Part shown: in pieces, positions 17,501 through 33,123 of the stretch
How the letters are laid out: each line of letters starts with the position of its first letter
How positions within the stretch are numbered: the first letter of the stretch is position 1
DNA from: an uncultured Mollicutes bacterium
GTDB lineage: Bacteria; Bacillota_I; Bacilli_A; ML615J-28; CAG-313
Reading direction: 5' to 3'
Length of the DNA stretch: 64,000 nt
Assembly: GCA_900548675.1 (NCBI GenBank)
Contig: URLJ01000002.1
Span: 87,493 to 151,492, forward strand
Program-made: the position numbers and the translations under genes
Notes under the pieces: model-generated
The model's input: only the letters and a program-made list of their open reading frames with translations
Told to the model about the DNA's origin: nothing
Databases searched by the model: none

Positions 17501-20500
17501 GCACATGACCATAAGATTCCCGATCTGATGATAAAACTTTTCCAAATTCTAGTACTGTGTTTATACCATATAATAATTTATCACCACTATCGGCTGTACC
17601 ATATCTATTAGAATTCGCTTCACTACTTACGAAATAATCAAATATAATTACTCCGCTTCCCTTTACCTTAAAAGCAGCACCTGATGTTGTCTTATCTATA
17701 TTACTATTCGTTGTAACATAAACAAATTTACCATCGGTTGATTTCTCATTACTAAATATTAAAGGGTATGTTGTATCATTAATTAATTCGATTGGTTTTG
17801 ATTCAGGAAGAATTAAATATTTATTAATGTCAGGAATTAGATTAATATATAACTTAATTATTGTATCTTTTGCTTCATCATCAGTGTAAATGAAATCTAT
17901 TTCGTGACTTTGACTAAAATCAGATAATGTATAAAAATACTTGCCTTTATCCGATAATAGTGGAAGTTCTTTTCCATTATCGTTCACTTTAACACTATAA
18001 CCTTGTATATCATTAACTTGATATATCATTTGCGTATCAGTTAAGATTTCTGTAAGAATTATTTCATCATAGTTCACAACTGAAGCATTGCTTATTTCTA
18101 CACCATTTTTTAATACACTATATTGAATTTCATTTTGGATATTTATTTTTTCTTTGAAAACTACACATATTTCAATATCTGTAGTCACTCTGATAAAATC
18201 ATTATTTTGAGAAATAAGTTCACCATATGTTCCATCAGCTTTTTTAATTTTATATCCTACATATTCCCAGTTCGATTGAGGAAGAGTTTCTGCATTTAGT
18301 TGGAATTCATTGAAAGTTTTATATGTGTTTTCTGTATTCATCGCTTCTTTTACAAAGCCATATATATCATAAACACTACCCTCACCAATAGTAGTTACTT
18401 TTACACTATGGTCAGTAGCTTTTAAAGCTTGAACATTTCTAATTGAACATGCATACCACGCGTAGTATGTAAACATTATTTTGATTGTATGCGTTCCTAC
18501 TGTATCAAAGTTATAGGCAAATGATTTATAATTGTAATCACCATTATTACCATCACCTGAAAGGAGAATTTCTTTACCATCAAATATCGCTGTAACTTTA
18601 TTTGCTTCATATGTTGTATCATCATATTCAAAATAGAATATATCAGTATCAGTAATTGTAAATGTAACAGAAGCATTTTTAGCTTCATCAGCAACAGTTG
18701 TGAAAACTCTTGTTGTTTCATCTAAGACAAATTTTCTTTCATCTTCATATTTATAATAAACATTCGTATCATATAAAGTCCCATAATCACTCGTACTATT
18801 TGTCATTTTTCCTCTTGATTTAGGAGCATTATTATTTGTTACAGTGATGTTCTTAATATAAGCAGTATCAAGCCCACCTTTACTGCTTGAATCTTTTTTA
18901 TAATATACCTTTAATAGAACTTTATCACTTGTTGTATTAGCGAAAGTATATTCGGTCCATTTAGCATTATCTGTGAAAAATTCATCCAAATTAGTATGAT
19001 CGTTATTTTTTCCCTTAGTATTAGTTACAGTGCCATTTGCATCAAAATATAAATAGTCCCAATTATTCTCAGAAGAACAAGCATATATAAATGAAATTGT
19101 TTTACCACTTGCTATTTCAAAAACAACATAACTACTTGTACTGTCTTCTCCTTGATTGCTTGAATATATATATGTTGTACCATTATATGAACCAAAACTC
19201 CAAGGGTATGTTTCATTTAAAAGTAGTGAAACTCCTTCATACTTAACGCCTTTAGCGTTACATATATCATAGGTTACATCATCAACTTTTGTGAAAACAT
19301 TATCTTTAGCTACTACTAAATGACTTTCTAGGTCTATTAAATCACCATCAACAACAATACTATATGCAACCTTTTTATCAAATTCATCTACAGCTGTATA
19401 AGGAATTTTACTGTTAGAGGCAACCTCAGCACCATTAGATTTTATAGTAATAAATTCTGGTACATTTTTAACTGCCAAATAATAAGTAGCAGTACCAAAT
19501 GAATCTAAACTATAATTGAGTTCACTCTTTTTGAGAAAATTACTTAGCGAAGTAAGGGCTTCACCATTTTCATTCTGAGCTTCTAGTAATAAATCAAGAT
19601 TTGTTAATAATTTAACATCAGCAACGTTTATACCATTTAATGAGGCTTTTACTTTAACTGCATTAAATCCTTCTTTAAAATCTATTACTAATTGTTTTGT
19701 TTTTGATGTAGTCTTTACACCATTGTGAACAACTTCGACGTCTACTTCTAATCCAAAATTAAACACACAATTAGTCGCATTTTTAGTTGTAACATAATTA
19801 GGGTTATTAATTATATCAGCATAAATATCATTTTCATCAAGTATAACTTCATATAAAATAGAGCCAACATTATTGGTTTGACCAACTGTTAAAAAGTATT
19901 CATAAGTTAATTTATTATATTTATCGTATATTTTATTATACTCTTCAACTATTTTTTCACTTACATAAGGAGCTACTACATCGATACCTAATTGTACAGG
20001 CCACATATTAGAGTAGCATTCACTTACTATCGTATTGTTATTTCCTTTTCCGTTAAATAAATATACACTATTTCCTGTTGCGATGAGGTATGAATTAATG
20101 ATATTAACGTTTTTAATTACCGAAGCGTATTTGTCATGATTGATACTATACACTACACCTGCAGTATAACCATTCGAACCACCATTAGCCATACTATTTG
20201 TTATGTTAACATTTTCTACTTTAATGCTCGCTTCACTCATACATGTAACAAACGCAAGATACATCGAATTAGTGTAATTTTCCACTCTACCGATGTAACA
20301 ATTATTGATATTACAATTTATGATTTCTGTACCAAAGGCTTTATTAACACCGACAATAATTGCTGCTTTATTGAATAATGTGTTTCCACATAGAACCTCG
20401 ATGTTTTCAAAATTGAGGTTTTTAATCGTTGTCTTCTTGTTAAAAGTGCTAAATATTCCGTTACCCATTTCATTATTCGCAATGATATTAGCATTTTTAA

Positions 20501-20876
20501 TAGCATGATTATTACCATCTAAGGTTCCTGAAAAATTTTCAATTGGAGACCATTTGTGACCATTAATATCAATGTCAACTAGTAACTTAATTGTATAATT
20601 AGAAAAATCAAATCCTTTCTTACACATATCAGCTAAACCTAAAAACTCAGCTGCAGTTGATATTTCTAAAATATTATCATCATAATCAAAGAAACTTCTA
20701 TCTACTGTTTTACCATCCCAAACACTAACATCACCATTTGCTTCAACACTTTTTGAGAAAATTATATTTCCGCCAAAGATTCCTAGTGCTAATGTCATAA
20801 TAAGTAAAACAATATTGATATTTTTTAGAGATTTGAATATTTTATCTAATAACTTATTTTTTATTAAACTATTCAT
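11514..20876 (-). CDS. Giant surface protein (3120 aa). It has an N-terminal signal/TM, a beta-helix-like region, tandem MBG-type repeats and a C-terminal TM tail anchor.
   Basis: A single 9.36 kb ORF. N-terminus MNSLIKNK...IVLLIMTLALGIFGGNIIFSKSVEANG. Repeated ...NYxIxxVNGxYxITKR..VYGD.. units match MBG-domain repeats. C-terminus IVISVIMVMTMVSAMAVILKRERF, with no LPXTG. Confidence 0.85.
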   Translation of the reverse strand: MNSLIKNKLLDKIFKSLKNINIVLLIMTLALGIFGGNIIFSKSVEANGDVSVWDGKTVDRSFFDYDDNILEISTAAEFLGLADMCKKGFDFSNYTIKLLVDIDINGHKWSPIENFSGTLDGNNHAIKNANIIANNEMGNGIFSTFNKKTTIKNLNFENIEVLCGNTLFNKAAIIVGVNKAFGTEIINCNINNCYIGRVENYTNSMYLAFVTCMSEASIKVENVNITNSMANGGSNGYTAGVVYSINHDKYASVIKNVNIINSYLIATGNSVYLFNGKGNNNTIVSECYSNMWPVQLGIDVVAPYVSEKIVEEYNKIYDKYNKLTYEYFLTVGQTNNVGSILYEVILDENDIYADIINNPNYVTTKNATNCVFNFGLEVDVEVVHNGVKTTSKTKQLVIDFKEGFNAVKVKASLNGINVADVKLLTNLDLLLEAQNENGEALTSLSNFLKKSELNYSLDSFGTATYYLAVKNVPEFITIKSNGAEVASNSKIPYTAVDEFDKKVAYSIVVDGDLIDLESHLVVAKDNVFTKVDDVTYDICNAKGVKYEGVSLLLNETYPWSFGSYNGTTYIYSSNQGEDSTSSYVVFEIASGKTISFIYACSSENNWDYLYFDANGTVTNTKGKNNDHTNLDEFFTDNAKWTEYTFANTTSDKVLLKVYYKKDSSSKGGLDTAYIKNITVTNNNAPKSRGKMTNSTSDYGTLYDTNVYYKYEDERKFVLDETTRVFTTVADEAKNASVTFTITDTDIFYFEYDDTTYEANKVTAIFDGKEILLSGDGNNGDYNYKSFAYNFDTVGTHTIKIMFTYYAWYACSIRNVQALKATDHSVKVTTIGEGSVYDIYGFVKEAMNTENTYKTFNEFQLNAETLPQSNWEYVGYKIKKADGTYGELISQNNDFIRVTTDIEICVVFKEKINIQNEIQYSVLKNGVEISNASVVNYDEIILTEILTDTQMIYQVNDIQGYSVKVNDNGKELPLLSDKGKYFYTLSDFSQSHEIDFIYTDDEAKDTIIKLYINLIPDINKYLILPESKPIELINDTTYPLIFSNEKSTDGKFVYVTTNSNIDKTTSGAAFKVKGSGVIIFDYFVSSEANSNRYGTADSGDKLLYGINTVLEFGKVLSSDRESYGHVLPEYANLVGYAGANLQETNTSLAQGETGWQKGIIPVSGAEDEETIVYIGYVKDGYSRDRDDMAGIANVDFISANFEFSYETNSSTTTITAKIDDVEIPSGSTVAAGKKAILTATNTNTSEKFYGWVDQDGRILSRQTTLTYNLSKSLNVKAIFITENSKIMCNNLFYATLEEALNATASASEVFIRILADMEISNDITINENVTILLPFELDDTEGMKIGTANVKRPSWGRGIKPYVTLTVSENATVTINGKLIVGGVQHAPNQASQGMTSGAYAKLVNNGSLIINGKMDVRGLVVGSGVLTLNDGAILKEPFMVDNYSGGTNTSDLYGANQFPFVQFATANIQCQKIVNYGSKILGTTSLYFWSSIHTQDVVLVDKIENRTASSEGSLIWLHEGSSLVITYDGKAVNHEYNTVHLGDSGLNIVEVNGVITAGEFSLQGYGSSEMTLSIPYTYNFIINADAKVILEKYYKLMPGSIIEIKENGTIEIAKKGGLLVYNGLLQAPKSGKEYPSSSILKANGFSQTGVLINNGTLDVKGLFLGIIQTTSNTGTIIVAEDADVAPKIITDGAGGGYTDNRSIFELKAEINGLYGRIPLENGKTYKAYNDDEFILEKYIMSYYSGNSGSSTYHPNVEVVINEVLKGRFLEFKDGKYYSDVEFYIGEEIENISIEIAGNIYKTNALGKFTANVAVDEIYYKSLSDFYNHYASVVMNDLTILDEVVKTIELQNTNNYELVYDEVGSTIKPLDIKALVTFYQGKTEVIDLVASIDNTKYVTLNAELSSSKYLVNLTHDIYVSSMEVAIYKNNYNMLKSSNDLINDAVKLYEELAALKENRTAKETEYLMQIISEYLDYIEIVPAKITVTTVPYGATKADAVLTFLDGTKKNAVVANITYIVNSNGIKADFVYDVDYYDAKDILVCDTNNVTAVDVKIIIDDKMSTYGDELLELSATANLLNNDTIKDVVDLIKEDGTKPGSYAITAIKKHPGYNIIVENGTYEITKRKIDVAVLNHKDIMKASATKISDIEISVSGNIDDNYEFSYELYQNNIYITSIDKLGNVLDILDIGTYKIKPIISSEYYEIENITLGEITILIDNTYYDVEVTFTSNGVELLLPSKVYDGIEVIPNIKVVKHDTKEEVVDGISYTLTGKDTSVIKKAGIYTINVTVNEVEYQNKATFEVERREIMVDITTKELVYNGAIQNPLFVVTSKIETDDVDVITKATTNVNVGNYFVETLGLTGADAENYILKTQEIREYTIVKKQIIVEITKVEQVYGDTDTILGAKSLTEIPSADTLNAIIKLTREKGDIVGSYDIIGEVVNDNYQVEFINGADAYVITKRNATVLIDDKNSIYGESLVELTGTIQGLAEKDESVDVKSIYRLYKEDGLDANTYLIKGEVVNQNYHITFVNGIYTIEKRAILIEVPNETSVYGDMIKEVVPTVISGTLKENEELSEILEVLKETGLDAREYKLIVNTKSNNYNVRVSYTNGDYSIYTITPRAIEVTINDLTINNKTSYSDLMSQLSYVISSGTLCENDDLNLTMYVIMNGKTITQENYHKHLCGGIHKITGTAANSNYNVTIVDAMLEVIKPQVRVVNIITNYTYTGEIFEGFDYTKNIEGYLESATASAFKAWYYRSGDASKTEVELRNAGTYIMVVEIVHKTSYEFEKDSQTEFEITIAKKDISDNIIIEGIEKENYININTITKPIVSLKETIDLNIEQKLYKDNTLVELIEGLGKYKFVVTIIDDNYEGEKIVEFEVIENIAETINKLKHGRLELERKRGLEIIEYSTRLKEKIDALSGVELLLISNNSEYQNLVEDIINRYTELNVMFKSVTEKEKELMEKYPEITDTSYDTKYQIYAFIASLDEIGQSFITSDNLLKLTAVKEEVSSVLEKSFVKVSSLEALLEKINKYNKAAVLQDAHDVVITLTVEEKGLALLDQRQAKILHDYEELWTDYVASLENVYTVSNKTLNAQIVISVIMVMTMVSAMAVILKRERF
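12950..14990 (-). repeat. Intragenic tandem array of about 8-10 MBG-like repeat units (about 80 aa each) within the 3120-aa protein
   Basis: Recurrent ITKR(K/N)..V, VYGD/IYGES and NYxV/I..xNG motifs at a regular period, for example DAYVITKRNATVLIDDKNSIYGESL and NGIYTIEKRAILIEVPNETSVYGDM. Confidence 0.6.
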
Positions 20877-20911
20877 ATTAGATTACCTTTCATTTCATTT
20901 TTTTAATTAAT

Positions 20912-23900
20912 CTATTTATCTTTTAATATATCGTAAGCAGATGTATCAAATATATCTTTTTCTTGCTTTTCAACTGTTAATGAACTTGTTGCATCATATA
21001 ACAAGAAACGGAATTTTTCTTTACCTGCAGTATAATATATAAATTTAGGATTGCTTGGTGAAAAATAATCTACATCAACTGTATAATCATGTAAATCTTC
21101 TTTAGCAGTAGATGTTGCTTCATCAAGTGCAACACAACTATAGTTTTTACCACCACCATAATACGCAATCGCACCATTAACATAAGTCTCACCATTATAA
21201 CTAGCTAATATTTTTTCATGTGATATATCTTCATCATAGTATTCTTTTAATAGACTACTGAAATCCAAATTGAACCCTATTTTAGAAGCCACCGTTGTAA
21301 GGTTACCATTACTATCTTTGATCCCTTCAATTAAAGTGTCACTATTTACAGAAGATACCTTTTTCCAATCATAGAAACGTACATCATCTTTTAATCTCAA
21401 TAATGCAGGATAACTAGTACCGCTAATTCCACCCCAGCCAAGTTCACTGCCAAATTTAAAGTTATCACTGAAGTCCCAACCATGGAGAACTAATCCCCCA
21501 AACATCGCTTCAAGACCTATGCTGAATAATCCGGCATTCATAAATACACAGTTTTGCACCGTGATATCTGTTAGAATATAATTATTGTAAAATTTTTCAT
21601 CTTTATAATTATTATTATCAATTACATAGTTTTTAGTGCCATTACTTAAGTATGGTGATGCATCATCATAATAACTTACGTTGGTAATAGCATCTTGTGT
21701 CGTACTAATTGTTTTATTTGTAACACGTGTTGTTTTCATCACTTGGTTTGTACCAATCTTTAATAAGAATTCACGAGCATTAGTAAAAAGTGTTTTTGAG
21801 AAAGTAGCAGTTATGCGGTAATCACTAGGATTAAAGGTAGTATCGGTATGAGCTTTACCAAAAACTCTAACTGCAGTTCTACCATTATTTATTCTTGAGT
21901 AAGAAACATTACAATTATCGCCAACTATTTCTAAAACAGTACCACAATAATCTAAATTAGTTAAATCATATTCGCCATTACTTGAGGCGATGCTTTCATC
22001 ATTACATCCTTTTAATTCAACATTATGAATATTTATATTATCCTTTAAAACTGCAAAAATAATATTATCTTGAGATTTTACTGCTAAGTTGTTTGGAGCA
22101 CCGTTATAATCTTTATTGTATCTTACTAAATCAATTGGGCCACGATAAACGCGCGTACCAAATTTTTTATTTAACAATTGTGTCAAATTGTCTGCTGATA
22201 TAGCGTAACCATTTCCATATAAATCTGTTGATATTTCTACTGCGTAACGAATAACTGCATCTTTTAATTTACCAGTATTTTTATAATATGTAACATCACA
22301 AGTAGGATCCATCGTTGTAAGACAACTTAATGCATACTTTTCATAATTATCATCTTTAGTCATTTTTTCTAGTTCTGGTGCTAGCATAATATTGTTTTTC
22401 AAAACCATTACGTATTCTTTATCTTCAATATTCTTGCTGCAAACCATCAACTCTTCATATGTAGATATATTTATACCATTACTTAAAACATTTAATTTGA
22501 TGCTAGTTGAAGTATTGAGGTTATTCTTATCGATAACATCTACTTCCACTAAGCCTGTTTTACCTCCTAAATAGAAATAACCATCTTCACCAATTGTAAG
22601 GATATCTTCATCACTACTTGTTAAAATTAATTTAGAATAATCTATTTTTTCACTACCATTAGATAACATTCCAATTAAAGGTAGTCTCATTTTATGATCT
22701 TTATCAAACGGAATTAAACTCTTTAAAGATGTAGCACTATCAAATGAATAATATCCAAGGGTAGGAATTTCAGTGAATGATCCACTAACAACTTTAACAG
22801 GCATCTCATCATTATCTATTGCGAGAGATACATAATTGCTGTAGATTTTAACTTCTAGTGTTTCTACATCAAATAATTTTACCCCCGTGTCTTTTTGTGT
22901 GATTGAACATGTTAATTTAAATACACCTTCTAATTTATTAGTAGGTTTTATAAAACATCCAAAATAATAATTATTAGTTAATGGATTAACTTCCGCAAGT
23001 GTTATAACTTCAGCAGCATCTTTTTCTGATAAGCTAAATTTAACACTTACCTTTGATATATCTTTTATATCTGTATATAAAGTTGCAACTCTTGTATTTG
23101 AGGCATTCTTTCTCATCAATACTTCTAAGTTTTTATCAGCGTAATTAGCATATGTTAATAATGTTTCTTCAGTATGGTTTATACCAATAATAACTGCAAC
23201 ATAATTAACATCACTAACCTTTACAAGGATTACATCAAGTTTATCACCTATTTGAATAGCGTATGTCTTTTCATTAGATAAGAAATCTTTAGGATTATTA
23301 AATTCATACTCACCTGTTTGATCATCCCATGAAAGAGCTTTTCTTGTCATAGTAGAACCGAGAACAACAATTTTATTATTACCATCTAAATCAGTTACTT
23401 TAAGAGCACCTATGCTTGTTGGCGCTAACTCTTCTTTTTCAGTACTTCCAAAGCCACTTACTTTAACAGTTGTCTTATAAGCATATTTCAAATCTAGTGA
23501 TTCATCTTTTTTTATTATTTCAGTCAAATCTAAAACTTCAATCTCAGGTTCAGGATGAACAACAGGTTTTTCATGTGGTGTTACCTTCACTATAATAGCA
23601 CTTAAAGTCGTACCTTTTACATCGTCGCGAACTACTAATAATTCTAGTTCATAACCTATTTTTATTCCTTTAGTTTTTTCATTAGTTAAGAAATTACTAG
23701 GATTACTAAATGTATATACACCTTTTTCTTTATCCCAAGTAAGAGCGTTAGTTGAAGCGGTTGATCCAATTACTACTACTCTATTTTCACCATTTAAATC
23801 TGTCGCTTTAAAACAACCAGTTTCACTTGCTGCATCATCATCATAACTGAGGTTATTCCCCCAACTTTCAACTAAAACAGTTGTACGATATGCTTTCTTT

Positions 23901-24064
23901 AAATTTTCATTAGAATCTAAAGCACATATTTCTTGTAAACTTTTCCCTATTTTAGCAGGTTCTTTAAAACCTTTATCACCACTATTTCCTCCGCCACATC
24001 CTACAGCTACTACTGCTAGTACTAATACTAACAACATTCCTAAAATTTTTTTGATGTTTTTCAT
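20912..24064 (-). CDS. Large lipoprotein (1050 aa) with an internal duplicated roughly 100-aa module and a beta-helix-like C-terminal region
   Basis: Lipobox MKNIKKILGMLLVLVLAVVAVGCGGG. The units ...KATDLNGENRVVVIGSTASTNALTWDKEKGVYTFSNPSNFLTNEKT.. and ..KVTDLDGNNKIVVLGSTMTRKALSWDDQTGEYEFNNPKDFLSNEKT.. are repeated. Asn/Gly-rich beta-helix-like repeats follow. Confidence 0.8.
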   Translation of the reverse strand: MKNIKKILGMLLVLVLAVVAVGCGGGNSGDKGFKEPAKIGKSLQEICALDSNENLKKAYRTTVLVESWGNNLSYDDDAASETGCFKATDLNGENRVVVIGSTASTNALTWDKEKGVYTFSNPSNFLTNEKTKGIKIGYELELLVVRDDVKGTTLSAIIVKVTPHEKPVVHPEPEIEVLDLTEIIKKDESLDLKYAYKTTVKVSGFGSTEKEELAPTSIGALKVTDLDGNNKIVVLGSTMTRKALSWDDQTGEYEFNNPKDFLSNEKTYAIQIGDKLDVILVKVSDVNYVAVIIGINHTEETLLTYANYADKNLEVLMRKNASNTRVATLYTDIKDISKVSVKFSLSEKDAAEVITLAEVNPLTNNYYFGCFIKPTNKLEGVFKLTCSITQKDTGVKLFDVETLEVKIYSNYVSLAIDNDEMPVKVVSGSFTEIPTLGYYSFDSATSLKSLIPFDKDHKMRLPLIGMLSNGSEKIDYSKLILTSSDEDILTIGEDGYFYLGGKTGLVEVDVIDKNNLNTSTSIKLNVLSNGINISTYEELMVCSKNIEDKEYVMVLKNNIMLAPELEKMTKDDNYEKYALSCLTTMDPTCDVTYYKNTGKLKDAVIRYAVEISTDLYGNGYAISADNLTQLLNKKFGTRVYRGPIDLVRYNKDYNGAPNNLAVKSQDNIIFAVLKDNINIHNVELKGCNDESIASSNGEYDLTNLDYCGTVLEIVGDNCNVSYSRINNGRTAVRVFGKAHTDTTFNPSDYRITATFSKTLFTNAREFLLKIGTNQVMKTTRVTNKTISTTQDAITNVSYYDDASPYLSNGTKNYVIDNNNYKDEKFYNNYILTDITVQNCVFMNAGLFSIGLEAMFGGLVLHGWDFSDNFKFGSELGWGGISGTSYPALLRLKDDVRFYDWKKVSSVNSDTLIEGIKDSNGNLTTVASKIGFNLDFSSLLKEYYDEDISHEKILASYNGETYVNGAIAYYGGGKNYSCVALDEATSTAKEDLHDYTVDVDYFSPSNPKFIYYTAGKEKFRFLLYDATSSLTVEKQEKDIFDTSAYDILKDK
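23164..23881 (-). repeat. Intragenic duplication of two roughly 300-bp units separated by about 400 bp
   Basis: Visible at the DNA level (compare 23340-23420 with 23740-23820) and at the protein level. Confidence 0.55.
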
Positions 24065-24084
24065 TTTCTCATTTCCTTTCCTTA

Positions 24085-24819
24085 CTAATTTTCAAATATT
24101 TCCATAAATTGATCTTCAAGTGTTTTGTTTGGATTATTCTTTTTAAATTCACTAATTACAATATCTGCAACTATTTCGCCACCATTTATGATATAAGCTC
24201 TATCACACGTTTTTTCAACAGCATCTAAATTATGAGAAGAATACAAAACAGCATTACCTTTTTCTTTGTAGACTTCCATATAATCCCTTAGAGCTTTACT
24301 AGTCTGTGGATCAAGACCAGTGAGTGGTTCATCTAAAAGCCACAATTTAGGACGATGGATTAAATTAGCCATTAAACAAATTTTTTGACGCATTCCATGT
24401 GAATAAGAAGAAATTAAATTATAAATTGCATCTCCAAGCTTAAAGACTTGTTGCATTTCTTCAATTCGCTCTTTTCTTTTGTCTTCTGCTACACCATGGA
24501 TATCTGCAATAAAATTTATATATTCAAACCCTGTCATCTTTTCAAACATAGCATGATTATCAGGAACATAACCAATTTCATTTTTAGCTTTTAAATCATC
24601 TTTAACAATATCATAACCGCATATCTTAATACTACCTTTATCAAAAGAGAAAAAACCTGTTAAACACTTTATGGTAGTAGATTTTCCTGCCCCGTTTTTA
24701 CCAAGTAACCCAACTATTTCTCCTGCATAACAATCGATATTTATGTCTTTTACCGCATAGGTCGTTTGTTTATTATATTTTTTATATAAACCTTTTATTT
24801 CTACTATTTTTTCTTTCAT
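24085..24819 (-). CDS. ABC transporter ATP-binding protein (ABC-2/BcrA-like)
   Basis: Walker A GKNGAGKSTT, signature variant YSHGMRQK, Walker B LWLLDEPLTGLD. Confidence 0.85.
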   Translation of the reverse strand: MKEKIVEIKGLYKKYNKQTTYAVKDINIDCYAGEIVGLLGKNGAGKSTTIKCLTGFFSFDKGSIKICGYDIVKDDLKAKNEIGYVPDNHAMFEKMTGFEYINFIADIHGVAEDKRKERIEEMQQVFKLGDAIYNLISSYSHGMRQKICLMANLIHRPKLWLLDEPLTGLDPQTSKALRDYMEVYKEKGNAVLYSSHNLDAVEKTCDRAYIINGGEIVADIVISEFKKNNPNKTLEDQFMEIFEN

Positions 24820-24829
24820 TTACTTTCAC

Positions 24830-25573
24830 CTAAATAACATTAACTAATATTTTAATTGTTTTTTCTTCATTTGAAATATTACCATTTTCATCAAGTAAAA
24901 CATATTTATAAGTTACGCTAACATAACTACTTCCTTTTTTAACTCCTGTTACTTTCCAACTGAACTTATCTGTAATAACTAGCACTTGTTCAGTTACGTT
25001 TTGAATGCTGAATTTACCCGTACCTAAAAGATAATCTCTTCCAATATTATATTTTTCTTGTAATTCTTCATCAAGTGGTAAATATTCAGTTATCGTGGTT
25101 TCTTCACCCACATTAATTGTGATTTCTCCTTTTTCAAAGTCAATTATTTTTACATCTTCTTTATTCATGTCTTTAGTTTTAATTCCCAAGGGTTCTGAGC
25201 AAATAAAATTAAAAGTTACAGCATCACTTCGATCCATCGCATTAACTCTTACCTTTATCCATCCGAGTGATTTAGGAATTACTACGCCATCATCCGTGAC
25301 TTCTACTTTTGCCTGCGGTTTGTTTTCAACTTCTTCGATAGTATATTTTAGTGTAATATTTACATCTTTTGGCATCACTATCGCCTCTATTTTTAGAAGA
25401 GGGTTATTTTCTAATTCTTTAGCGATATCCACTACCCTTGTGTGACGGCCATCTACACTAACACTTGTAACAGTAGGATTCACAACTATTGCGGTTTTTT
25501 TAATTACAACACTTGTTGTAAAAATTAAAATGATTGGAATTATTAGTATTAGAATTATTATTTTTTGTTTCAT
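24830..25573 (-). CDS. Membrane-anchored extracellular protein (N-terminal TM plus a beta-rich Ig-like ectodomain) associated with the ABC transporter
   Basis: MKQKIIILILIIPIILIFTTSVV is a TM helix. The remainder is beta-rich. The gene is wedged between the permease and the ATPase with 7-10 nt gaps. Confidence 0.5.
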   Translation of the reverse strand: MKQKIIILILIIPIILIFTTSVVIKKTAIVVNPTVTSVSVDGRHTRVVDIAKELENNPLLKIEAIVMPKDVNITLKYTIEEVENKPQAKVEVTDDGVVIPKSLGWIKVRVNAMDRSDAVTFNFICSEPLGIKTKDMNKEDVKIIDFEKGEITINVGEETTITEYLPLDEELQEKYNIGRDYLLGTGKFSIQNVTEQVLVITDKFSWKVTGVKKGSSYVSVTYKYVLLDENGNISNEEKTIKILVNVI

Positions 25574-25579
25574 AACTCT

Positions 25580-27250
25580 TTACCCCTCAAATTCATGATA
25601 TCTTTTATTTAACGATTTTATCAAATATAGATACGATAATACTAATATTACAACTACGCTAATAGTTAAAAAGCCGATGGATAACCACATAGCTAAAGCG
25701 CTAGATTTAAGAGTTGAAACCACTACGGATAGTGTGAGTGAACCTCCTCCTAAAATAATTGATACGATAAGACCTAGGAAGATAACAACCGATGTTCCAA
25801 CATTTTCTTCCGCATCATCACTATTAGTTATTTTAGGATTATTTAAGTCTTTTCTCGTCGCAAACATTATTTCTGATGCCGATAAGAGACTCGCAATTAT
25901 AAATATAACTAAGGCTTGATACCACGTAATGAAGCCTGTTGCGAGAAGTATTACATCACTTGCGATAAGGCCTATTTCCGAAACAATTAAACAGAACAAA
26001 ACTTTACTTAAAACGATTTGTTTACCACTAACTGGTAATGTTTTTAAAATATAAAGCATCTTTCCATCTCTTGAAATATTTGTGGTACAAAAAGTATTTG
26101 TTATTACAACAAACATTGTTATTACAAATATCGCTAATTCATAATCACAATTCACTAAAGCAATACCAGGTATTTTAATCATCATTTCTTTCATAATATT
26201 AACACAAACATATATCATAAATGGCAGAGTAACTGTCGTCGCAAGATATTGGAATGCATAACTTGGTGTTCTTAAAACCACCTTAAATTCTTTTATAATT
26301 AGGCTTGTAATAATATTCTGTTTTTTATATCTTACTTTAGGTGTTTTTTCTCTTTTATTTATGCCTTCAAGTTTGATTTGAAGTAGTTTTTTGTATACTA
26401 CACCAACAATAAAAACACTAAGAACAACACACAAGAAAGATAGTCCAATAATTATCATTAATGATAAAAAATAATTTTGATTTATCATCATTTTCGCAAA
26501 TAAATTAATCGGATATGCACGATCACATATTTTTTCTATTACTGCTATTCGCCGCAATTCAAAGAAGTATGTCATATCACCACTTTGAAGTAGGGCGGTT
26601 AAAACATTTAAAAATATACTATATAAATAAAAACCAATACCCAAGATTATTACATATATTACTAGATGGAGGATAAATTTCTTTTCAATAAAATCCATCA
26701 CATAATTGTATCCAATTGATAATACGGCGGCAATTCCACATGATACCATTGGAATTAAGAAAAGGTGAAGGACAATTGAAGAATAGAACGCTACTCCACT
26801 TGCATAACTACTGATATTAGCCACTACAATGCTGACGGGTATTATGATTATAGCAGTCGATGCTATTTGAGATAAATATATTTTAATTAACTTATACAAG
26901 AAAATGCTCTTTGAACTAATTGGATGAACCATAAGAACTTCCATATCTTTTGTACTCATCGTTGTCGTATATATCTTTTTCACACCCAGTAAAACGTTAA
27001 TTACGATGATTCCTCCATAAGTTATGGTAAGTATTTCAAATAATCTTCTTATTTCATTTGATGGATCATCAAACGTTTTTGTAATATACATTTTAGTAAA
27101 TTTATAATACACATATATAAATGTTCCATAAAGAATGAGGATTAAAAGGATTGTGGATATGTATCCTAATATATCTTTTTTATTTCTTTTAAAAATTGAT
27201 AAAAACCTTTCAGTAAAATCTTTTTTAAATAAAATTAGTACTTTATTCAT
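25580..27250 (-). CDS. Polytopic ABC transporter permease (about 12 TM; ABC-2 type exporter-like)
   Basis: 556 aa of alternating hydrophobic helices. It is the first gene of the operon and is followed closely by the ATPase. Confidence 0.6.
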   Translation of the reverse strand: MNKVLILFKKDFTERFLSIFKRNKKDILGYISTILLILILYGTFIYVYYKFTKMYITKTFDDPSNEIRRLFEILTITYGGIIVINVLLGVKKIYTTTMSTKDMEVLMVHPISSKSIFLYKLIKIYLSQIASTAIIIIPVSIVVANISSYASGVAFYSSIVLHLFLIPMVSCGIAAVLSIGYNYVMDFIEKKFILHLVIYVIILGIGFYLYSIFLNVLTALLQSGDMTYFFELRRIAVIEKICDRAYPINLFAKMMINQNYFLSLMIIIGLSFLCVVLSVFIVGVVYKKLLQIKLEGINKREKTPKVRYKKQNIITSLIIKEFKVVLRTPSYAFQYLATTVTLPFMIYVCVNIMKEMMIKIPGIALVNCDYELAIFVITMFVVITNTFCTTNISRDGKMLYILKTLPVSGKQIVLSKVLFCLIVSEIGLIASDVILLATGFITWYQALVIFIIASLLSASEIMFATRKDLNNPKITNSDDAEENVGTSVVIFLGLIVSIILGGGSLTLSVVVSTLKSSALAMWLSIGFLTISVVVILVLSYLYLIKSLNKRYHEFEG

Positions 27251-27451: not shown

Positions 27452-30421
27452 TTAATTTTCTATTATGACTAGTGTTTGACCACCACTAACTGTTTCACCT
27501 TTTTTTACCCATATTTCTTTAACTGTCCCTGATATTGGTGAAACAATTTCGTTTTTTAACTTCATTGCTTCTAAAGATAATAGCGTACTTCCTTTAGGCA
27601 CTTTATCACCAACATTTACGGCTATATCTAATACTTCTCCTGCCATTGGGGCTTTAATTATTTCTCTTACTTTTTCTAAGGATGGTTCACTATTAAAATC
27701 CACATCAGTATCAACAATTATGATAGGTGCTATACCATGTCTTTTTTGATATACAAGTGATGATTCTTTTTCACCTTGGTTAGAAACGACGAAACATTTA
27801 TCAATAACAGTTGGGAAAGGAGTTCTTAAAAAGTAACTACCTTTTTTATCAAGTGTCGCACATCCTTTAGCAACAGCATAATCTGTAGGTCTTTTTACAT
27901 CTACTTGATCGATATAACAAGGTATCGTTACTTTGTCAATAGTGTTTTCACAAACACATCCAAGATATAGATTATTGCTGTTGTTTGCGGTATTAGGAGT
28001 AGTGTATATACTATTATCTACATTCATAGGTAGTATATATGTATCTAGTGCGTTGTTAAAGGCTTTTTTATAAAATTCATTATTAAGCCAACTGCGTACA
28101 TCAGAATATTCATAGTTATTAGGTTTAATCATTTTACCATCAATCATTCGTTCACGACACATTGAGGCATATTCTTGTCTATCAAGAATAGTTTCACTTA
28201 ATAAAATATATGCACTTTCTTTTCCTTCATCATTTTCAGTTTTTTGAACTGTCCATTTAATTGGCATTACTTTAAAGTAATAAGTTTTACCAGCCTCAAG
28301 AGCAGTTTGATCTGATGTGTAGTAATTACTAATATTAACATCAGCTACTACTTTTTCGTAACGTGCTCCGTCACTTCCCAAATAGTAACCATCTTTATCA
28401 GGGGTATCACTTGTTATTTTAACATATTCTTTTTTTAAATCTTGAGGATATTCTCCAAAATAAATGGTTTCACCATCTTTTTTTCCACCAATAGATGCCC
28501 ATTTAACTTTTAAAATGATTGTAGCAGTTTTATCTTCTGATACGGTATATTTATCAACCACTAATTCATTTGATTCACCTATACCTGGTTTTTTAGCTAT
28601 TAAATGACCATTTACTAATTTAACTAATCCTCCATTACCATCGTATGTAATATCAATCTTAAAGCCTAGTGACATAAGACTTGTAATTGCTTCTTTATAA
28701 TAATTGTTATAAAGTTTAAGTTTAGCATCATACATACCATTCTTTATTTTACCCTTAGCGAAGAGCCCAAGTTTGGCATCTTTTTGTGGTATTACTTCTA
28801 TTACTGTTTCAGTAAATCCCGCTTGTTTTAATCTTTCATTTTCTTCTGTGATAAATTTTTGTCTTTCTGTATAACGCTTTTCTTTTACTTCTCGTTGTTT
28901 TAATTCTTTATAAGTGTTGTTAACTTCTACAAATAATGCTCTACCTTCATCATCTAAATCAATATTCGATAATAAATTATATGCAGTTTTAACATCGCCA
29001 TCGGCAAATGCCTTTCTTACTTTCGTATATGTCTCTTGCATATATTGATATGTATTCTGGCAATCTTCAAGTTTATCTTTAGCATCACAGAAATCATCTG
29101 CTTGAGTTAATTCTTCAATTGCCTCTTTGTAATTATTAGTTAAAATATAATTTACTGCAGCATCATAATGTTTTTTACATTCATTATTTTTTATTATCTT
29201 ATTGCTGATTGACAGTAACTCTTCTTTATATTCAGCGTCCGCAAAAGTTAAAGCTTTTTTAAAGTTTTTATTATTTGTAATATCACTCGTGTAATTAACT
29301 AAATCGCCGGCTTTAGTAAGTGATAAGTCGATTAACATTAATAAAAAGTAAGCTTTGGCATTTTCAGGATCAATATTTAAAATATTATCAAGAACTTCTT
29401 TGGCTTTAGGATAATCTTCATCACTGATTAAAATTTCACTTCTTCTAAGTAAAGGAGATACGTTATTATTGATATTTGTGTTTTGAATTGTTTGTTCCAC
29501 CACTATTTGCTTTTTAATGGTTCTATCAAAGATTTTATCAATACCTCTTACAAGATCTTGAATAAATCCTAATTTATTCATATCCTGAGCTTGGAACAAC
29601 GCTAATTCTTCTGGTAACTCGTAAGCTTCCATATCTCTGTAACATGGTATAATATATCTTTTTTGGTCCGTATCATCCATCATACTGATGAATCTACTCC
29701 ACTCATTTTTAACCCATACCGCATTATAATATTCTGGCTTTGTTCCTATTACAAGCATAACTTTAGCACTTGATAAGGCAGCATATATATATGGTTCATA
29801 CTTAGCACCAGGAATACTTTCAAGGGTTATTTTTGAGAAGAATACCCGGTATCCTTTACTTACTAATTCATCATATACTTCTTGGGCTATTACAGAATCC
29901 CTCGTTCTTTTTCCTTCAGAACTTGTTTCTTTATAACAAATGAATATATCATAAGGCTCTTCTTTTTGTGATATCATCAATATCTCTTTTTGCAATCTAT
30001 TGATTTCTTCAGCTTCTGCTTGATATATTCTTTTAGCTACCACGTCACTGTTTTCAATGGCTGCTAAATAATCAATGTCATCAAAAATTGATTTTAATTG
30101 TGTTCTATGACATGTAGGAATCTTTCTATTTGTAGCTTTATCATCAACATATTCTATTCCATATCTACAAAGTAATAATCCCCAGTGAGCTTCTGCATCT
30201 TTAGGATTTTCATTAATAATGTTTTCATATGTTATGATAGCTTTATCAAACATATTATTTAGTCTTAAACTATTAGCTCTGTTATGAAGGGCGGCTAGCT
30301 TTTCATTATCTACAATATTAGGAACCGTTTGTTCTCTTTCACAATATTCACATCTAGCCGTTGTGGCTCCTTCTGGAACGTTAATTATAGCCCCACATGC
30401 TTTACATTTAAATTCTCTCAT
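27452..30421 (-). CDS. Multidomain protein (989 aa). Domains in order: N-terminal C4 zinc ribbon, TIR domain, helical/TPR-like region, unknown beta-rich region, and a C-terminal biotinyl/lipoyl (BCCP-like) domain.
   Basis: Zinc ribbon: CKACG...CEYCE. TIR: YDIFICYKETSSEGKRTRDSVIAQEVYDELVSKGYRVFF...AKVMLVIGT...YYNAVWVKNEWSRF (about aa 155-290). C-terminus: IKAPMAGEVLDIAVNVGDKVPKGSTLLSLEAMKLKNEIVSPISGTVKEIWVKKGETVSGGQTLVIIEN, which matches the AccB biotinyl-domain consensus including EAMK. Confidence 0.7.
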   Translation of the reverse strand: MREFKCKACGAIINVPEGATTARCEYCEREQTVPNIVDNEKLAALHNRANSLRLNNMFDKAIITYENIINENPKDAEAHWGLLLCRYGIEYVDDKATNRKIPTCHRTQLKSIFDDIDYLAAIENSDVVAKRIYQAEAEEINRLQKEILMISQKEEPYDIFICYKETSSEGKRTRDSVIAQEVYDELVSKGYRVFFSKITLESIPGAKYEPYIYAALSSAKVMLVIGTKPEYYNAVWVKNEWSRFISMMDDTDQKRYIIPCYRDMEAYELPEELALFQAQDMNKLGFIQDLVRGIDKIFDRTIKKQIVVEQTIQNTNINNNVSPLLRRSEILISDEDYPKAKEVLDNILNIDPENAKAYFLLMLIDLSLTKAGDLVNYTSDITNNKNFKKALTFADAEYKEELLSISNKIIKNNECKKHYDAAVNYILTNNYKEAIEELTQADDFCDAKDKLEDCQNTYQYMQETYTKVRKAFADGDVKTAYNLLSNIDLDDEGRALFVEVNNTYKELKQREVKEKRYTERQKFITEENERLKQAGFTETVIEVIPQKDAKLGLFAKGKIKNGMYDAKLKLYNNYYKEAITSLMSLGFKIDITYDGNGGLVKLVNGHLIAKKPGIGESNELVVDKYTVSEDKTATIILKVKWASIGGKKDGETIYFGEYPQDLKKEYVKITSDTPDKDGYYLGSDGARYEKVVADVNISNYYTSDQTALEAGKTYYFKVMPIKWTVQKTENDEGKESAYILLSETILDRQEYASMCRERMIDGKMIKPNNYEYSDVRSWLNNEFYKKAFNNALDTYILPMNVDNSIYTTPNTANNSNNLYLGCVCENTIDKVTIPCYIDQVDVKRPTDYAVAKGCATLDKKGSYFLRTPFPTVIDKCFVVSNQGEKESSLVYQKRHGIAPIIIVDTDVDFNSEPSLEKVREIIKAPMAGEVLDIAVNVGDKVPKGSTLLSLEAMKLKNEIVSPISGTVKEIWVKKGETVSGGQTLVIIEN

Positions 30422-30435
30422 ATATATCCTCTTTT

Positions 30436-31134
30436 CTATTTAGCACTGCGTATTTTAATACTTCTTTCTTTTACTAAAGATATGACTTTATCTATTTGAT
30501 ACGATACCTTTTCATAATCATTATCATAGTATGCTGATTTCAAGGAGGAATAATTATCATTGATTTCATCTTCGATATCTTCTACAATGCTCGTAGAAAT
30601 AGGATCAGTGTAAATTATCAATTCATATAGTTTAGCGAATTTTTCCCTTAATGGTTCGTATTTAAACTCATTATTAAATACTTTTATATCATCCCTTAAT
30701 GTTTTCATAAACTCTTGTTTAGCCTTTGCTTCTGCTTCATTTTCCTTTAAGGCATCTTTATAAAATTCCACTTTAATAATGCTCATTACTTCTAATCCTA
30801 CGATTATTACATTAACTATTAATACGAACCAAAGCGGTACATTAAAGAAATTATTAAAAATCGTTACAAGTATTGTTATAATAAAAGTTACGACAAGATA
30901 TATCAAACTAACCCTTACAAGAGGGATGCCGTATACCTTAATTTTTAAGTTTTTTTCTTTGTAAAAAGCTGCATAAAATGTATATAATTGAGCCAAAATA
31001 GCTACCATCATAAAGATATATGAGGTAATATAAACACTTAAATTTACATAGTTAAAAGGGATTATGAAATAGCATAAAGAGAATATTAAAGCAATTATAC
31101 CTAACGCAATAATAAATCTAATTTTATTTTTCAT
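30436..31134 (-). CDS. Membrane protein (four N-terminal TM helices plus a cytoplasmic charged/coiled C-terminal domain), the middle gene of the operon
   Basis: Hydrophobic helices within aa 8-120. The C-terminal region is rich in E/K/D and Y. It is separated from both neighbours by 2-14 nt. Confidence 0.55.
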   Translation of the reverse strand: MKNKIRFIIALGIIALIFSLCYFIIPFNYVNLSVYITSYIFMMVAILAQLYTFYAAFYKEKNLKIKVYGIPLVRVSLIYLVVTFIITILVTIFNNFFNVPLWFVLIVNVIIVGLEVMSIIKVEFYKDALKENEAEAKAKQEFMKTLRDDIKVFNNEFKYEPLREKFAKLYELIIYTDPISTSIVEDIEDEINDNYSSLKSAYYDNDYEKVSYQIDKVISLVKERSIKIRSAK

Positions 31135-31136
31135 AT

Positions 31137-32864
31137 TTATTCACCCTTTTTTGTTCCGCAATTAGGACAGAATGGTGTCGTTATATTTTTCATCCCACAT
31201 TCACAATCCCAGGTATTATTTGTTGTAGGTTTCTTACAGCCACACTCTGGGCAGAATGGTGTCGTTATATCACTTTTTCCGCAGTTAGGACAAACCCAAG
31301 TATTGTTCGGTGTCGGTTTTTTACTTCCACAATTAGGGCAGAAAAGTGTTGTTACTTCACTGTGACAATTAGGACAAGTCCATTTATTTTGACTTACTGG
31401 TTTTTCTTCTTTAAGATTTAACGTTGGATTGACCGTGTTTTTAACAGTACTAGCTACTTCACCCATTACTCCAAGGCCTACTCCTAAACCTACCATATCA
31501 TTCATCAATCCTGTCACTCCCCCTACTTGACCTTGATTTTCCATAGCAGCTTTAGCAACTTGACGTTGTGTCTCTTGTTGATATGTGTAACCTTTCATTT
31601 GCATTTCCTTAGCTTCAGCTTCAGCCTTTAGGCGATACGCTTCAGCAGATGCTTGCGCTTTGATAATTTCTTCTTGAGCGGCCGTTTGTGCCTCAACCAT
31701 TTTACGTTGTTGTGCGGCTTCGGCTTCAGCTTTTTTGATGCGTTCTTCTGCCACAAGCAAATATTTTTCAGCATATTGTTCTTTTAAACGTTTGAAGTTT
31801 GGATCATCATCTGGTGTCATAATTGTTGTAATAAAGAATTCTGGCATTATCAAGCCATATGCTTCGAGGGCTCTATTAATTTCATTCTTCAAAACATTTG
31901 ATATTTCTTCAATGTGTTCATCTACTTCTAAAATATTGATTGCTTCTTCTCTTATTGTCTTAGCCAAGAAAGACTTAACTTTAGCGGTAACTAATGCTTT
32001 GAATTTTCCTTTCATTCCCACATTTGAGTAATCACTTCCCATTAAATCATTTTGATTTAATTCACCTGTTGTACCTACTACTTTTATTAAAAGTTTTCTT
32101 GGATCATTAACTTTAATATTAAACTCACCACAGGCACCTAATTCAACATGCATGCCTGTTGCGGGATCAAACATTCTTATACGTGTATCAGTTCCCCATT
32201 TTATGCCCATTTGCGTTGTTAAATTAACATAGTAAACCTCTGCATGGAACATATTTGTATCTGATACAGTTGGAAGCTTATAAGTTTTATTTAATAATGG
32301 AATATTATCAGTATTAAGTGTGTATCTACCAGCTCCGAAGGAATCAAGAGCTTTACCATCTTTTAAGAATACAGCTTCTTGTGATTCATGAACAATAAGT
32401 TGTGTTCCCAAATTGAAATCTTCAACAGGATGTTTCCATACTAAGACATCATTAGGTCCTTCATATTTTATTACTGATATTATGCCATCTTTAGTCAAAT
32501 TTTGTTTTAAAATTTGTTCTTTAACATTAATTGTTGTATCACATAAAGGGCAAGTATATGTTGTAGCATTTTTATCTACCGTTAACTCGCAAGAACAAGT
32601 TGGACATTTGATTTCAGCAGTGTTTTTTAACGCATCTTCAGTTGCAAGTTTTTCTTTACAAATAGGACAAACAGCTTTGTTTCCTTTTGATTGATCATAA
32701 ACCACAGTGTTCTTACAATGAGGACAAACAATTGATTTCATCTTATCCTTTTTAATATTTATTACCATACCACAAGTACATTGGATATTCTTTTTTGAAA
32801 AAATTGATGTTGATGCTTCATTATAAGCACCGCAATGTGGGCATTCAATTACAAATTTTGCCAT
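31137..32864 (-). CDS. SPFH/band-7-like protein of the YdjI / 'virion core protein' (PRK13665-like) family, flanked by three N-terminal and three C-terminal C4 zinc ribbons
   Basis: Core HESQEAVFLKDGKALDSFGAGRYTLNTDNIPLL...VNLTTQMGIKWGTDTRI and an Ala/Glu/Gln coiled coil. The N-terminus has three CxxC..CxxC units. The C-terminus repeats W.CPNCG....ITTPFCP.CG.KKPT.NNT three times. Confidence 0.6.
   Translation of the reverse strand: MAKFVIECPHCGAYNEASTSIFSKKNIQCTCGMVINIKKDKMKSIVCPHCKNTVVYDQSKGNKAVCPICKEKLATEDALKNTAEIKCPTCSCELTVDKNATTYTCPLCDTTINVKEQILKQNLTKDGIISVIKYEGPNDVLVWKHPVEDFNLGTQLIVHESQEAVFLKDGKALDSFGAGRYTLNTDNIPLLNKTYKLPTVSDTNMFHAEVYYVNLTTQMGIKWGTDTRIRMFDPATGMHVELGACGEFNIKVNDPRKLLIKVVGTTGELNQNDLMGSDYSNVGMKGKFKALVTAKVKSFLAKTIREEAINILEVDEHIEEISNVLKNEINRALEAYGLIMPEFFITTIMTPDDDPNFKRLKEQYAEKYLLVAEERIKKAEAEAAQQRKMVEAQTAAQEEIIKAQASAEAYRLKAEAEAKEMQMKGYTYQQETQRQVAKAAMENQGQVGGVTGLMNDMVGLGVGLGVMGEVASTVKNTVNPTLNLKEEKPVSQNKWTCPNCHSEVTTLFCPNCGSKKPTPNNTWVCPNCGKSDITTPFCPECGCKKPTTNNTWDCECGMKNITTPFCPNCGTKKGE
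31140..31376 (-). repeat. Three tandem roughly 80-bp direct repeats encoding the C-terminal zinc-ribbon units
   Basis: The DNA-level unit recurs as ...ggacagaatggtgtcgttatat... / ...gggcagaatggtgtcgttatatc... / ...gggcagaaaagtgttgttac... Confidence 0.6.
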
Positions 32865-32868
32865 ATTA

Positions 32869-33072
32869 TTAATTCTCCTCCATATCTGAAATAACTAAAT
32901 TTTTTAATGAAAATTCTAAACACATAATCATAATCTCATTTCTCGTTCTACCAGTTTTTTCGGCAACCAAATCTATTTCTTTAGCAAGCTCACTTGGCAT
33001 TCTTGTAGAAACGACAATTGATTCACCTTTGTATTTTTTAGATTGAATCTCAAGTTTCACTTTACTTTCCAT
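32869..33072 (-). CDS. Ribbon-helix-helix (CopG/Arc-like) DNA-binding protein, the likely autoregulator of the operon
   Basis: MESKVKLEIQSKKYKGESIVVSTRMPSELAKEIDLVAEKTGRTRNEIMIMCLEFSL has a beta strand followed by two helices. The SD AAAGAGG lies 8 nt before the ATG at 33072. The longer ORF-track N-terminus has no SD. Confidence 0.6.
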   Translation of the reverse strand: MESKVKLEIQSKKYKGESIVVSTRMPSELAKEIDLVAEKTGRTRNEIMIMCLEFSLKNLVISDMEEN

Positions 33073-33094: not shown

Positions 33095-33123
33095 ATTATA
33101 ATACAAATGTATACAAATGTCAA
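33095..33123 (-). promoter_or_regulatory. Perfect consensus sigma-A promoter (-35 TTGACA, 17 nt, -10 TATAAT) driving the RHH/SPFH/TIR operon
   Basis: The minus strand reads TTGACAtttgtatacatttgtatTATAAT. The TSS is predicted about 15 nt upstream of the RHH ATG. Confidence 0.7.

Follow-up and report, generated by a model that had tools for sequence, protein, structure and literature searches.

An SPFH protein with N- and C-terminal zinc ribbons linked to four-transmembrane and TIR genes in an uncultured Mollicutes bacterium

The stretch of DNA analyzed here (the window; 64,000 nucleotides [nt]) belongs to contig URLJ01000002.1 (positions 87,493 to 151,492, forward strand) of assembly GCA_900548675.1, which represents an uncultured Mollicutes bacterium. 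A gene near its middle encodes a 575-amino-acid (aa) protein in which an SPFH domain lies between two sets of zinc ribbons. The gene is part of an operon with the order ribbon-helix-helix (RHH) gene, SPFH gene, four-transmembrane (4TM) gene, and TIR gene, separated by intergenic gaps of 4, 2, and 14 nt. The features of the SPFH gene, in window coordinates, are as follows.

31137-32864, minus strand: SPFH/zinc-ribbon gene, an ATG-initiated open reading frame (ORF) of 575 aa with a GGAGGAG ribosome-binding site upstream
32526-32864, minus strand: N-terminal module, aa 1-113, made up of three zinc ribbons with long spacers (Cys pattern, AlphaFold2 [AF2] model)
31806-32477, minus strand: SPFH (Band_7_1) domain, aa 130-353 (Pfam, Foldseek)
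31539-31802, minus strand: long Ala/Glu/Gln-rich helix, aa 355-424 and 428-442 (AF2 secondary structure)
31389-31535, minus strand: disordered linker, aa 444-492 (predicted local distance difference test [pLDDT] below 50)
31140-31382, minus strand: C-terminal array of three zinc ribbons with short spacers, aa 495-522, 523-551, and 552-575 (Cys pattern; units of 84, 87, and 72 bp)

The layout of three ribbons, a central SPFH domain, and three further ribbons had been proposed in a first-pass annotation made from the sequence alone, and it was borne out by the Cys pattern, by Pfam, and by the AF2 model. Pfam assigned aa 149-353 to Band_7_1 (PF13421) with an E value of 1.3e-35 (123.4 bits, against a gathering cutoff of 24), so that the SPFH similarity proposed in the annotation stands far above the cutoff of a profile search. 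The AF2 model, a monomer computed from an input alignment of 20 homologs, shows an SPFH alpha/beta fold followed by the long helix. The top PDB matches found with Foldseek were stomatin, prohibitin, flotillin, HflK/C, and QmcA (E values from 9e-8 to 2e-4), with identities of only 12 to 16%, and a PDB sequence search with a profile of the family returned no chain at an E value of ≤0.01. The alignment to cage-forming SPFH chains spans about 300 columns, which cover the SPFH domain and the helix; by analogy, the long helix would correspond to the coiled-coil wall or cap element of SPFH oligomers. The protein has no transmembrane (TM) segment, as no 19-residue window comes up to the hydropathy cutoff used.

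The N-terminal ribbons have the cysteine patterns C8xxC..C29xC, C47xxC..C66xxC, and C87xxC..C105xxC. All 12 ligand cysteines are invariant in an alignment of 20 diverse homologs, and the ribbons form beta-hairpins in the AF2 model with a pLDDT of about 70 to 75. An RBR/IBR-like reading of this module was rejected since the matches were too weak (Pfam IBR_1, E value of 0.026; Foldseek HOIP/HOIL-1, E values of 0.2 to 0.4). The C-terminal ribbons gave weak Pfam matches to Zn_ribbon_3 and DZR, both under the gathering cutoffs, and the units matched a DZANK-type domain in BFVD with an E value of 0.012. They share with DZR, Zn_ribbon_3, and DZANK-type arrays the short CPxCG knuckles and differ from them in occurring as one to six tandem copies on an SPFH protein. 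The linker that precedes them holds a conserved Gly-rich hydrophobic stretch, GLGVGLGVMG in this genome (consensus GLGVxLGAMG), of which G461, G465, and V470 are invariant in the same 20 homologs. This stretch could be a membrane-dipping or self-associating element.

More than 7,800 homologs were found at an E value of ≤1e-5, the best 120 of which cover 95 to 100% of the query, and the protein is present in at least 590 species-representative genomes. A search of 1.84 billion proteins recovered the N-terminal module in 280 clusters (50% identity), with few exceptions at residue 1 of Band_7_1 proteins, and the module is thus almost specific to the SPFH/zinc-ribbon family. The only protein found to carry an N-terminal-type ribbon module without an SPFH domain, P0233 (1,330 aa), combines six ribbon stretches with caspase (Peptidase_C14) and FGE-sulfatase domains, and such caspase/FGE-sulfatase architectures are typical of conflict or cell death systems. 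In P0062, from an Oscillospiraceae metagenome-assembled genome, an additional zinc-ribbon pair lies within the SPFH domain (alignment columns ~275 to 320), and ribbons have therefore been gained at a third position too.

The two genes that follow the SPFH gene went unnoticed in the first-pass annotation and turned out to be the most informative feature of the locus.

30436-31134, minus strand: 4TM partner gene, 232 aa, beginning 2 nt past the SPFH stop codon (hydropathy)
27452-30421, minus strand: zinc-ribbon/TPR/TIR partner gene, 989 aa, beginning 14 nt past the 4TM gene (Pfam)

In seven relatives that were followed through their encoding contigs, one or two TIR_2 genes were present beside the SPFH gene in every case, and a protein of about 232 aa was encoded in six of the seven, the homologs being 25 to 29% identical. 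The linkage was then surveyed with local hidden Markov models at 80 loci from species-representative genomes, of which the 42 that had 5 kb or more of flanking sequence in each direction were regarded as well flanked. The loci surveyed belong to Lachnospiraceae, Oscillospiraceae, Ruminococcus, and Erysipelotrichales-like "Bacilli," along with a few bins labeled Spirochaetales or Bacteroidales. A TIR homolog on the same strand and within 6 kb was found at 37 of the 42 well-flanked loci, and a TIR gene was nearby at all 29 well-flanked loci whose SPFH protein has the N-terminal ribbons. The 4TM partner was detected in 72 of 87 loci and lay within 3 kb of the SPFH gene in 36 of the 42 well-flanked ones. 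The association is also reciprocal, as all four sampled homologs of the N-terminal 301 aa of the TIR protein adjoin a Band_7_1 gene. The flanking genes, the gene order, and the number of TIR copies (0 to 4 within 6 kb) vary among loci, which argues that the linkage is under selection and is not simply shared synteny.

Two distant relatives without TIR genes (loci L086 and L089) encode an SPFH protein with one C-terminal ribbon and no N-terminal ribbons, and the protein encoded upstream is YdjG-like, its zinc ribbon accompanied by a helical region and multiple TM segments. A partner led by a zinc ribbon thus appears to be a common theme of SPFH neighborhoods, judging from domain content; the YdjG-like neighbor and the N terminus of the TIR protein align colinearly, but at an E value of 0.049, which is no more than suggestive of homology. 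In the plasmid and phage collections searched, no full-length relative of the SPFH protein was found. The best plasmid match is an SPFH protein of a Butyrivibrio plasmid that lacks the N-terminal module and has no TIR-annotated gene within 6 kb.

Two neighborhoods contain further systems. At L097 (4431-5908), two TIR genes come directly after a classical pair of NfeD and stomatin-type Band_7 genes, and next in line are Band_7_1 and 233-aa genes, so that two different SPFH systems occur at one TIR locus. At L010 (11585-17950), genes of known defense types, encoding type I restriction-modification subunits (Methylase_S and N6_Mtase) and AbiEii/AbiEi, were found on the strand opposite to the SPFH gene, a few kilobases downstream of it; this is a single case.

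The 232-aa partner consists of a hydrophobic N-terminal half, with approximately four TM helices by hydropathy, and a predicted cytoplasmic helical domain. A short motif, Y[ST]DP[IV][ST], is retained in the cytoplasmic half of this protein and of its homologs despite their identities of only 25 to 29%, and the 4TM protein evolves fast. No match to it was found in Pfam, NCBIfam, PADLOC, or PHROG, and a word-indexed protein search returned only its own cluster, since the protein diverges too fast for such an index.

The 989-aa partner contains a zinc ribbon, a helical/TPR region, a TIR_2 domain (Pfam E value of 5.5e-12), a TPR region, DUF6273, and a biotinyl/lipoyl domain. An AF2 model of aa 1 to 301 (pLDDT of 90.7) comprises the zinc ribbon, the helical region, and the TIR domain, and the structures closest to it are SPARTA TIR-APAZ, SARM1, AbTir, and plant TIRs. 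SPARTA, SARM1, AbTir, and plant TIRs are NAD+-consuming enzymes that are switched on by oligomerization. A search of the PDB with a 12-sequence profile aligned the Glu of a WVKNEW motif with the Glu of SKWCLMEL in the flax L6/L7 TIR; a phmmer search of the PDB with the single TIR-core sequence returned nothing. This Glu, which we take to be the catalytic residue from what is known of plant TIR NADases, is kept in 95 of 102 TIR paralogs. The fold, and the conservation of a Glu where the catalytic one lies, are shared with bacterial and eukaryotic TIR NADases that are activated by oligomerization (SPARTA TIR-APAZ, AbTir, SARM1, plant TNL TIRs, and Thoeris ThsB-type sensors).

Of the 102 paralogs, 99 begin with a CxxC..CxxC ribbon. 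About half have a TM segment, and the 989-aa protein of the window has none. Their C-terminal parts are highly variable, carrying DUF6273 with a biotinyl/lipoyl domain, RCC1/WD40-like repeats (L010), TM2 (L012), or no recognized domain. In the 989-aa protein, the Biotin_lipoyl domain (E value of 8.7e-18) follows DUF6273 at the C terminus and includes an EAMKL motif; to our knowledge, the fusion of a TIR domain to a biotinyl/lipoyl domain has no precedent. A 1,576-aa paralog at L008 (8588-13318) is composed of a zinc ribbon, TPR, TIR, a hydrophobic segment, and about 900 aa of repeats, and the next gene encodes an LRR_5 protein. The predicted topology of this paralog, with a TIR domain in the cytoplasm and a repeat-rich part outside that are connected via a membrane segment, would resemble that of Toll-like receptors.

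The number of C-terminal ribbons differs among homologs as the first-pass annotation had suggested, ranging from 2 to 6 in the 120 best homologs and from 1 to 5 in the species-representative genomes, and the N-terminal Cys pattern is fixed in most of the 120. One exact 29-aa unit aside, P0034 (649 aa) shares 98.9% identity with P0050 (620 aa), and P0011 and P0012 are 95.9% identical save for one 26-aa unit. Within the P0050 lineage, 46 of 50 representatives are 619 to 620 aa long and have four ribbons (three of them were counted as having three, one ribbon being degenerate), and the other four are 649 aa long with five ribbons. The five-ribbon allele of L010 contains a 96-nt exact direct repeat at an offset of 87 and is therefore a fresh duplication. 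These pairs show that the length of the C-terminal array evolves by the gain and loss of whole units. Degenerate ribbons with lost Cys ligands (WNFEFG and FFPNCG) were observed in P0012, P0115, and P0116, and single units can thus decay without being deleted.

Among characterized proteins, the closest in design is SamI (YdjI) of Bacillus subtilis, which has an SPFH domain, a low-complexity region, and a C-terminal zinc finger and lacks an anchor (bioRxiv 10.64898/2026.02.06.704340; PMC11237479). SamI owes its recruitment to two membrane proteins, SamG (zinc ribbons and TM segments) and SamH (TPM domain), and is needed for the localization of PspA (PMC8581546; PMC11237479; bioRxiv 10.64898/2026.02.06.704340), and it acts as a brake on SamGH signaling (bioRxiv 10.64898/2026.02.06.704340). 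Since the protein of the window likewise has a Band_7_1 domain, no anchor, and a low-complexity linker that precedes CPxCG zinc fingers at the C terminus, it is classified, from its domains and model, as a YdjI/SamI-type protein. The pspA-ydjGHI (pspA-samGHI) operon also resembles the present one in encoding membrane-protein partners, one of which is led by zinc ribbons. However, three N-terminal ribbons have been added and three are present at the C terminus, compared with one zinc-finger motif in SamI, a comparison based on the published description of SamI. In addition, none of pspA, ydjG, and a ydjH with a TPM domain was found in the operon of the window or in the sampled neighborhoods of relatives, and the partners are instead the 4TM protein and the zinc-ribbon/TPR/TIR proteins.

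HflK/C-FtsH, QmcA-YbbJ, stomatin, flotillin, and prohibitin share with the present protein an SPFH fold followed by a long helix, and the logic of cage-forming assemblies, in which an SPFH oligomer regulates a membrane-associated client, may apply here by analogy. In contrast to those proteins, the SPFH protein has no N-terminal TM segment or hairpin, its N terminus being formed by three zinc ribbons, and TIR proteins would take the place, as clients, of the protease in HflK/C-FtsH and the NfeD protein in QmcA-YbbJ.

Of the two family assignments in the first-pass annotation, YdjI and PRK13665, only the YdjI/SamI-type core was retained. PRK13665, presumably the FloA/YqfA family, was absent from the NCBIfam matches at an E value of ≤0.1, which comprised weak coiled-coil matches (TolA and FloT) and one match in the zinc-ribbon region. 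A relation to "virion core protein" profiles was discarded as well, as the viral fold matches in BFVD are to generic Band 7 proteins from phages and giant viruses, with no poxvirus core protein among them.

No match was obtained in PADLOC at an E value of ≤0.01 for the SPFH, 4TM, TIR, or RHH protein. The PADLOC match of the ABC ATPase encoded in the window is of the spurious kind that generic ATPases produce. The sole defense match in NCBIfam was at the level of the TIR domain, to Thoeris type III ThcB4 (22.6 bits against a cutoff of 220), and no Argonaute, ThsA-like effector, or STAND NTPase is among the genes listed in the sampled neighborhoods. Band 7 proteins with a C-terminal zinc ribbon have been described previously (PMC11237479), where "Tir" denotes the CesT/Tir chaperone and not the TIR domain. 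In the searchable literature, no paper was found that ties SPFH/Band 7 to TIR domains, and neither the triple ribbon fused to the N terminus, nor the C-terminal array of variable length, nor the SPFH-4TM-TIR operon is described there; public annotations read merely "SPFH domain-containing protein" and "TIR domain-containing protein." By the searchable literature and PADLOC, the N-terminal triple ribbon, the variable C-terminal array, and above all the SPFH-4TM-TIR operon appear to be novel.

The reading that we favor, to which we give about an even chance, is that the SPFH protein is a peripheral scaffold whose ribbons dock the partner proteins of a membrane-linked TIR module. The protein would be a soluble, membrane-peripheral scaffold of the YdjI/SamI type, whose SPFH domain and long helix, by analogy with solved SPFH assemblies, would build a ring or cage against the membrane on its cytoplasmic side. 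All solved SPFH assemblies that we know of oligomerize at the membrane. Because the SPFH protein has no anchor of its own, the cotranslated 4TM protein may hold it at the membrane, as the gene linkage and the precedent of SamG and SamH suggest. The linkage and the SamGHI precedent likewise point to the ribbons as candidate docking sites for the zinc-ribbon/TPR/TIR proteins of the same operon, with three fixed ribbons beside the SPFH domain and a variable C-terminal array on a flexible Gly-rich tether. Such a scaffold might govern where and how densely the TIR proteins cluster.

Several observations weigh against this reading. The 4TM and TIR neighbors also occur beside SPFH proteins without N-terminal ribbons (L062, L065, L077, L085, L087, L091, and L092), and the N-terminal module is therefore not required for the linkage, and three loci (L011, L016, and L038) have TIR genes with no 4TM partner. 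The correlation between the number of C-terminal ribbons and the number of adjacent TIR genes is weak (rho of 0.41, p = 0.012, n = 37, with no phylogenetic correction), and in the subset with the N-terminal module it has a rho of 0.39 (p = 0.096, n = 19). The full-length SPFH model is of moderate confidence (pLDDT of 65, predicted template modeling score of 0.37). Physical contact among the SPFH, 4TM, and TIR proteins is a prediction from the conserved gene linkage and the SamGHI precedent, and the NADase-type activity of the TIR protein is predicted from its sequence and model.

We propose more tentatively, as less likely than not, that the RHH-SPFH-4TM-TIR operon constitutes a hitherto undescribed TIR system that is coupled to the membrane in Firmicutes of the gut and rumen. 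In it, the 4TM protein would tether a ring or cage of the SPFH protein, whose ribbon arrays would hold zinc-ribbon/TPR/TIR receptors with highly variable C-terminal domains; these receptors would be released or clustered upon damage to the envelope or attack by phages, NAD+ cleavage would then signal or abort the infection, and the valency of the platform would be determined by the number of ribbons.

As membrane scaffolds, SPFH proteins are universal, and TIR enzymes need controlled clustering to fire. A tightly and reciprocally linked SPFH/4TM/TIR module would supply a concrete and testable SPFH client and would suggest a membrane-based route of TIR regulation, and the natural series of one to six ribbons, with fresh single-unit changes in some strains, provides ready valency variants.

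The ribbons could instead be lysine-rich modules that bind the membrane or lipids (or nucleic acids), so that ribbon number sets membrane avidity, which is essentially the "membrane clustering" suggested in the first-pass annotation. An SPFH protein without a TM segment needs some way of getting to the membrane, the tether that carries the array is flexible, a conserved K/R-K-P closes each C-terminal unit, and K+R exceeds D+E in both ribbon regions (18 versus 12 and 8 versus 6). However, this net excess of charge is modest, most loci have the gene for a dedicated 4TM partner directly downstream, and the localization of SamI depends on membrane proteins and not on the zinc finger alone (PMC8581546), which makes membrane-binding ribbons an unlikely alternative to docking.

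It is quite unlikely that the protein is a functional equivalent of SamI/YdjI, that is, an adaptor that brings a PspA/ESCRT-III protein encoded elsewhere to damaged membrane, with the TIR genes adjacent through coregulation and not as parts of a shared complex. The Pfam family and the core layout (SPFH domain, low-complexity linker, C-terminal zinc finger, no anchor) are the same, and the YdjG-like zinc-ribbon/TM neighbor of relatives without TIR genes fits such a role. However, the pspA, ydjG, and TPM-domain ydjH genes that it would lead one to expect are missing from the operon and the sampled neighborhoods, and the linkage to TIR genes, found at 29 of 29 loci, is reciprocal.

In another arrangement, the TIR proteins would be shut inside the SPFH cage and silenced, much as FtsH is enclosed by HflK/C, and the ribbons would be incidental decoration; this overlaps the favored docking reading and differs from it mainly in the role of the ribbons. 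The fold resembles HflK/C as well as QmcA, which forms a complex with YbbJ; the TIR paralogs with a TM segment, about half of the total, could sit under a cage; and the braking of SamGH by SamI offers a parallel (bioRxiv 10.64898/2026.02.06.704340). However, the 989-aa TIR protein of the window has no TM segment, and the ribbon cysteines, invariant across the family, argue for a specific role, so that silencing with merely decorative ribbons seems very unlikely.

The last alternative concerns the C-terminal repeat itself. The tandem DNA repeat that the first-pass annotation placed at 31140-31376 was recovered by Tandem Repeats Finder (TRF) at 31147-31361 (period of 87, 2.5 copies, 71% matches, score of 202), with the ribbons spanning 31140-31382. 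Its units had been called near-identical 27-aa ribbons; they are in fact 28, 29, and 24 aa long, and their pairwise identities are 57 to 68% for protein and 64 to 70% for codon-aligned DNA, with a best ungapped stretch of 76%. The longest exact runs between pairs of units are 9, 11, and 19 nt. At codon-degenerate residues shared by pairs of units, the same codon was observed 9, 8, and 6 times, and local codon usage predicts 10.2, 7.2, and 7.7; these matches are at the chance level, and the synonymous sites are therefore saturated and the triplication is old. Judged by these comparisons, the DNA repeat does no more than reflect an old conserved protein repeat, an ordinary ancient one in this genome, and no sign of recent duplication or gene conversion is seen among the C-terminal units.

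The 90% cluster of this species comprises 17 sequences, 15 of which were examined. All 12 full-length variants are 575 aa long; entries that fall short of this come from truncated contigs or alternative starts. Of six contigs from the same species, five have an identical gene, and the sixth has four substitutions and no indel. The C-terminal array of this species is thus an old fixed triplet and not a mutational hotspot; by the annotation's own reasoning, an invariant copy number and diverged synonymous sites tell against the slipped-strand hotspot that it had suggested. Arrays with young units gain and lose units, and that of the window has aged beyond this stage. A contingency locus, in which slipped-strand mispairing or unequal recombination alters ribbon number at high frequency in this organism, would fit a TRF-detected tandem and the single-unit changes between near-identical strains of other lineages, but it is already largely refuted by the low DNA identity, the short exact runs, the chance-level codon identity, and the constant length within the species, and we regard it as scarcely credible.

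Upstream of the SPFH gene, the operon begins with the RHH gene and a promoter-like site.

32869-33072, minus strand: RHH (CopG/Arc-like) gene, 67 aa (Pfam RHH_1, E value of 0.0011; Arc, E value of 0.027; PHROG CopG-like repressor, E value of 4e-4)
33095-33123, minus strand: promoter-like site upstream of the operon, TTGACA-17-TATAAT, with 12 of 12 consensus matches

The promoter-like site is a consensus match only, such sites being overall no commoner than in shuffled sequences. It overlaps the TTG start of an 84-aa ORF call, and the start of the RHH gene is therefore probably the ATG at 33072, which gives the 67-aa protein also called in same-species contigs. The RHH protein is probably a local regulator, as judged from its family matches, and an RHH gene upstream of the SPFH gene is not conserved in the relatives examined.

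Downstream of the operon, the minus strand encodes a 12TM_1 protein, a 247-aa protein without a Pfam match, and an ABC ATPase (24085-27250), and beyond these a 1,050-aa protein without a Pfam match and a 3,120-aa protein in which only MBG_2 was recognized, in three stretches. The whole downstream set (11514-27250) looks like a cell-surface or secretion cluster.

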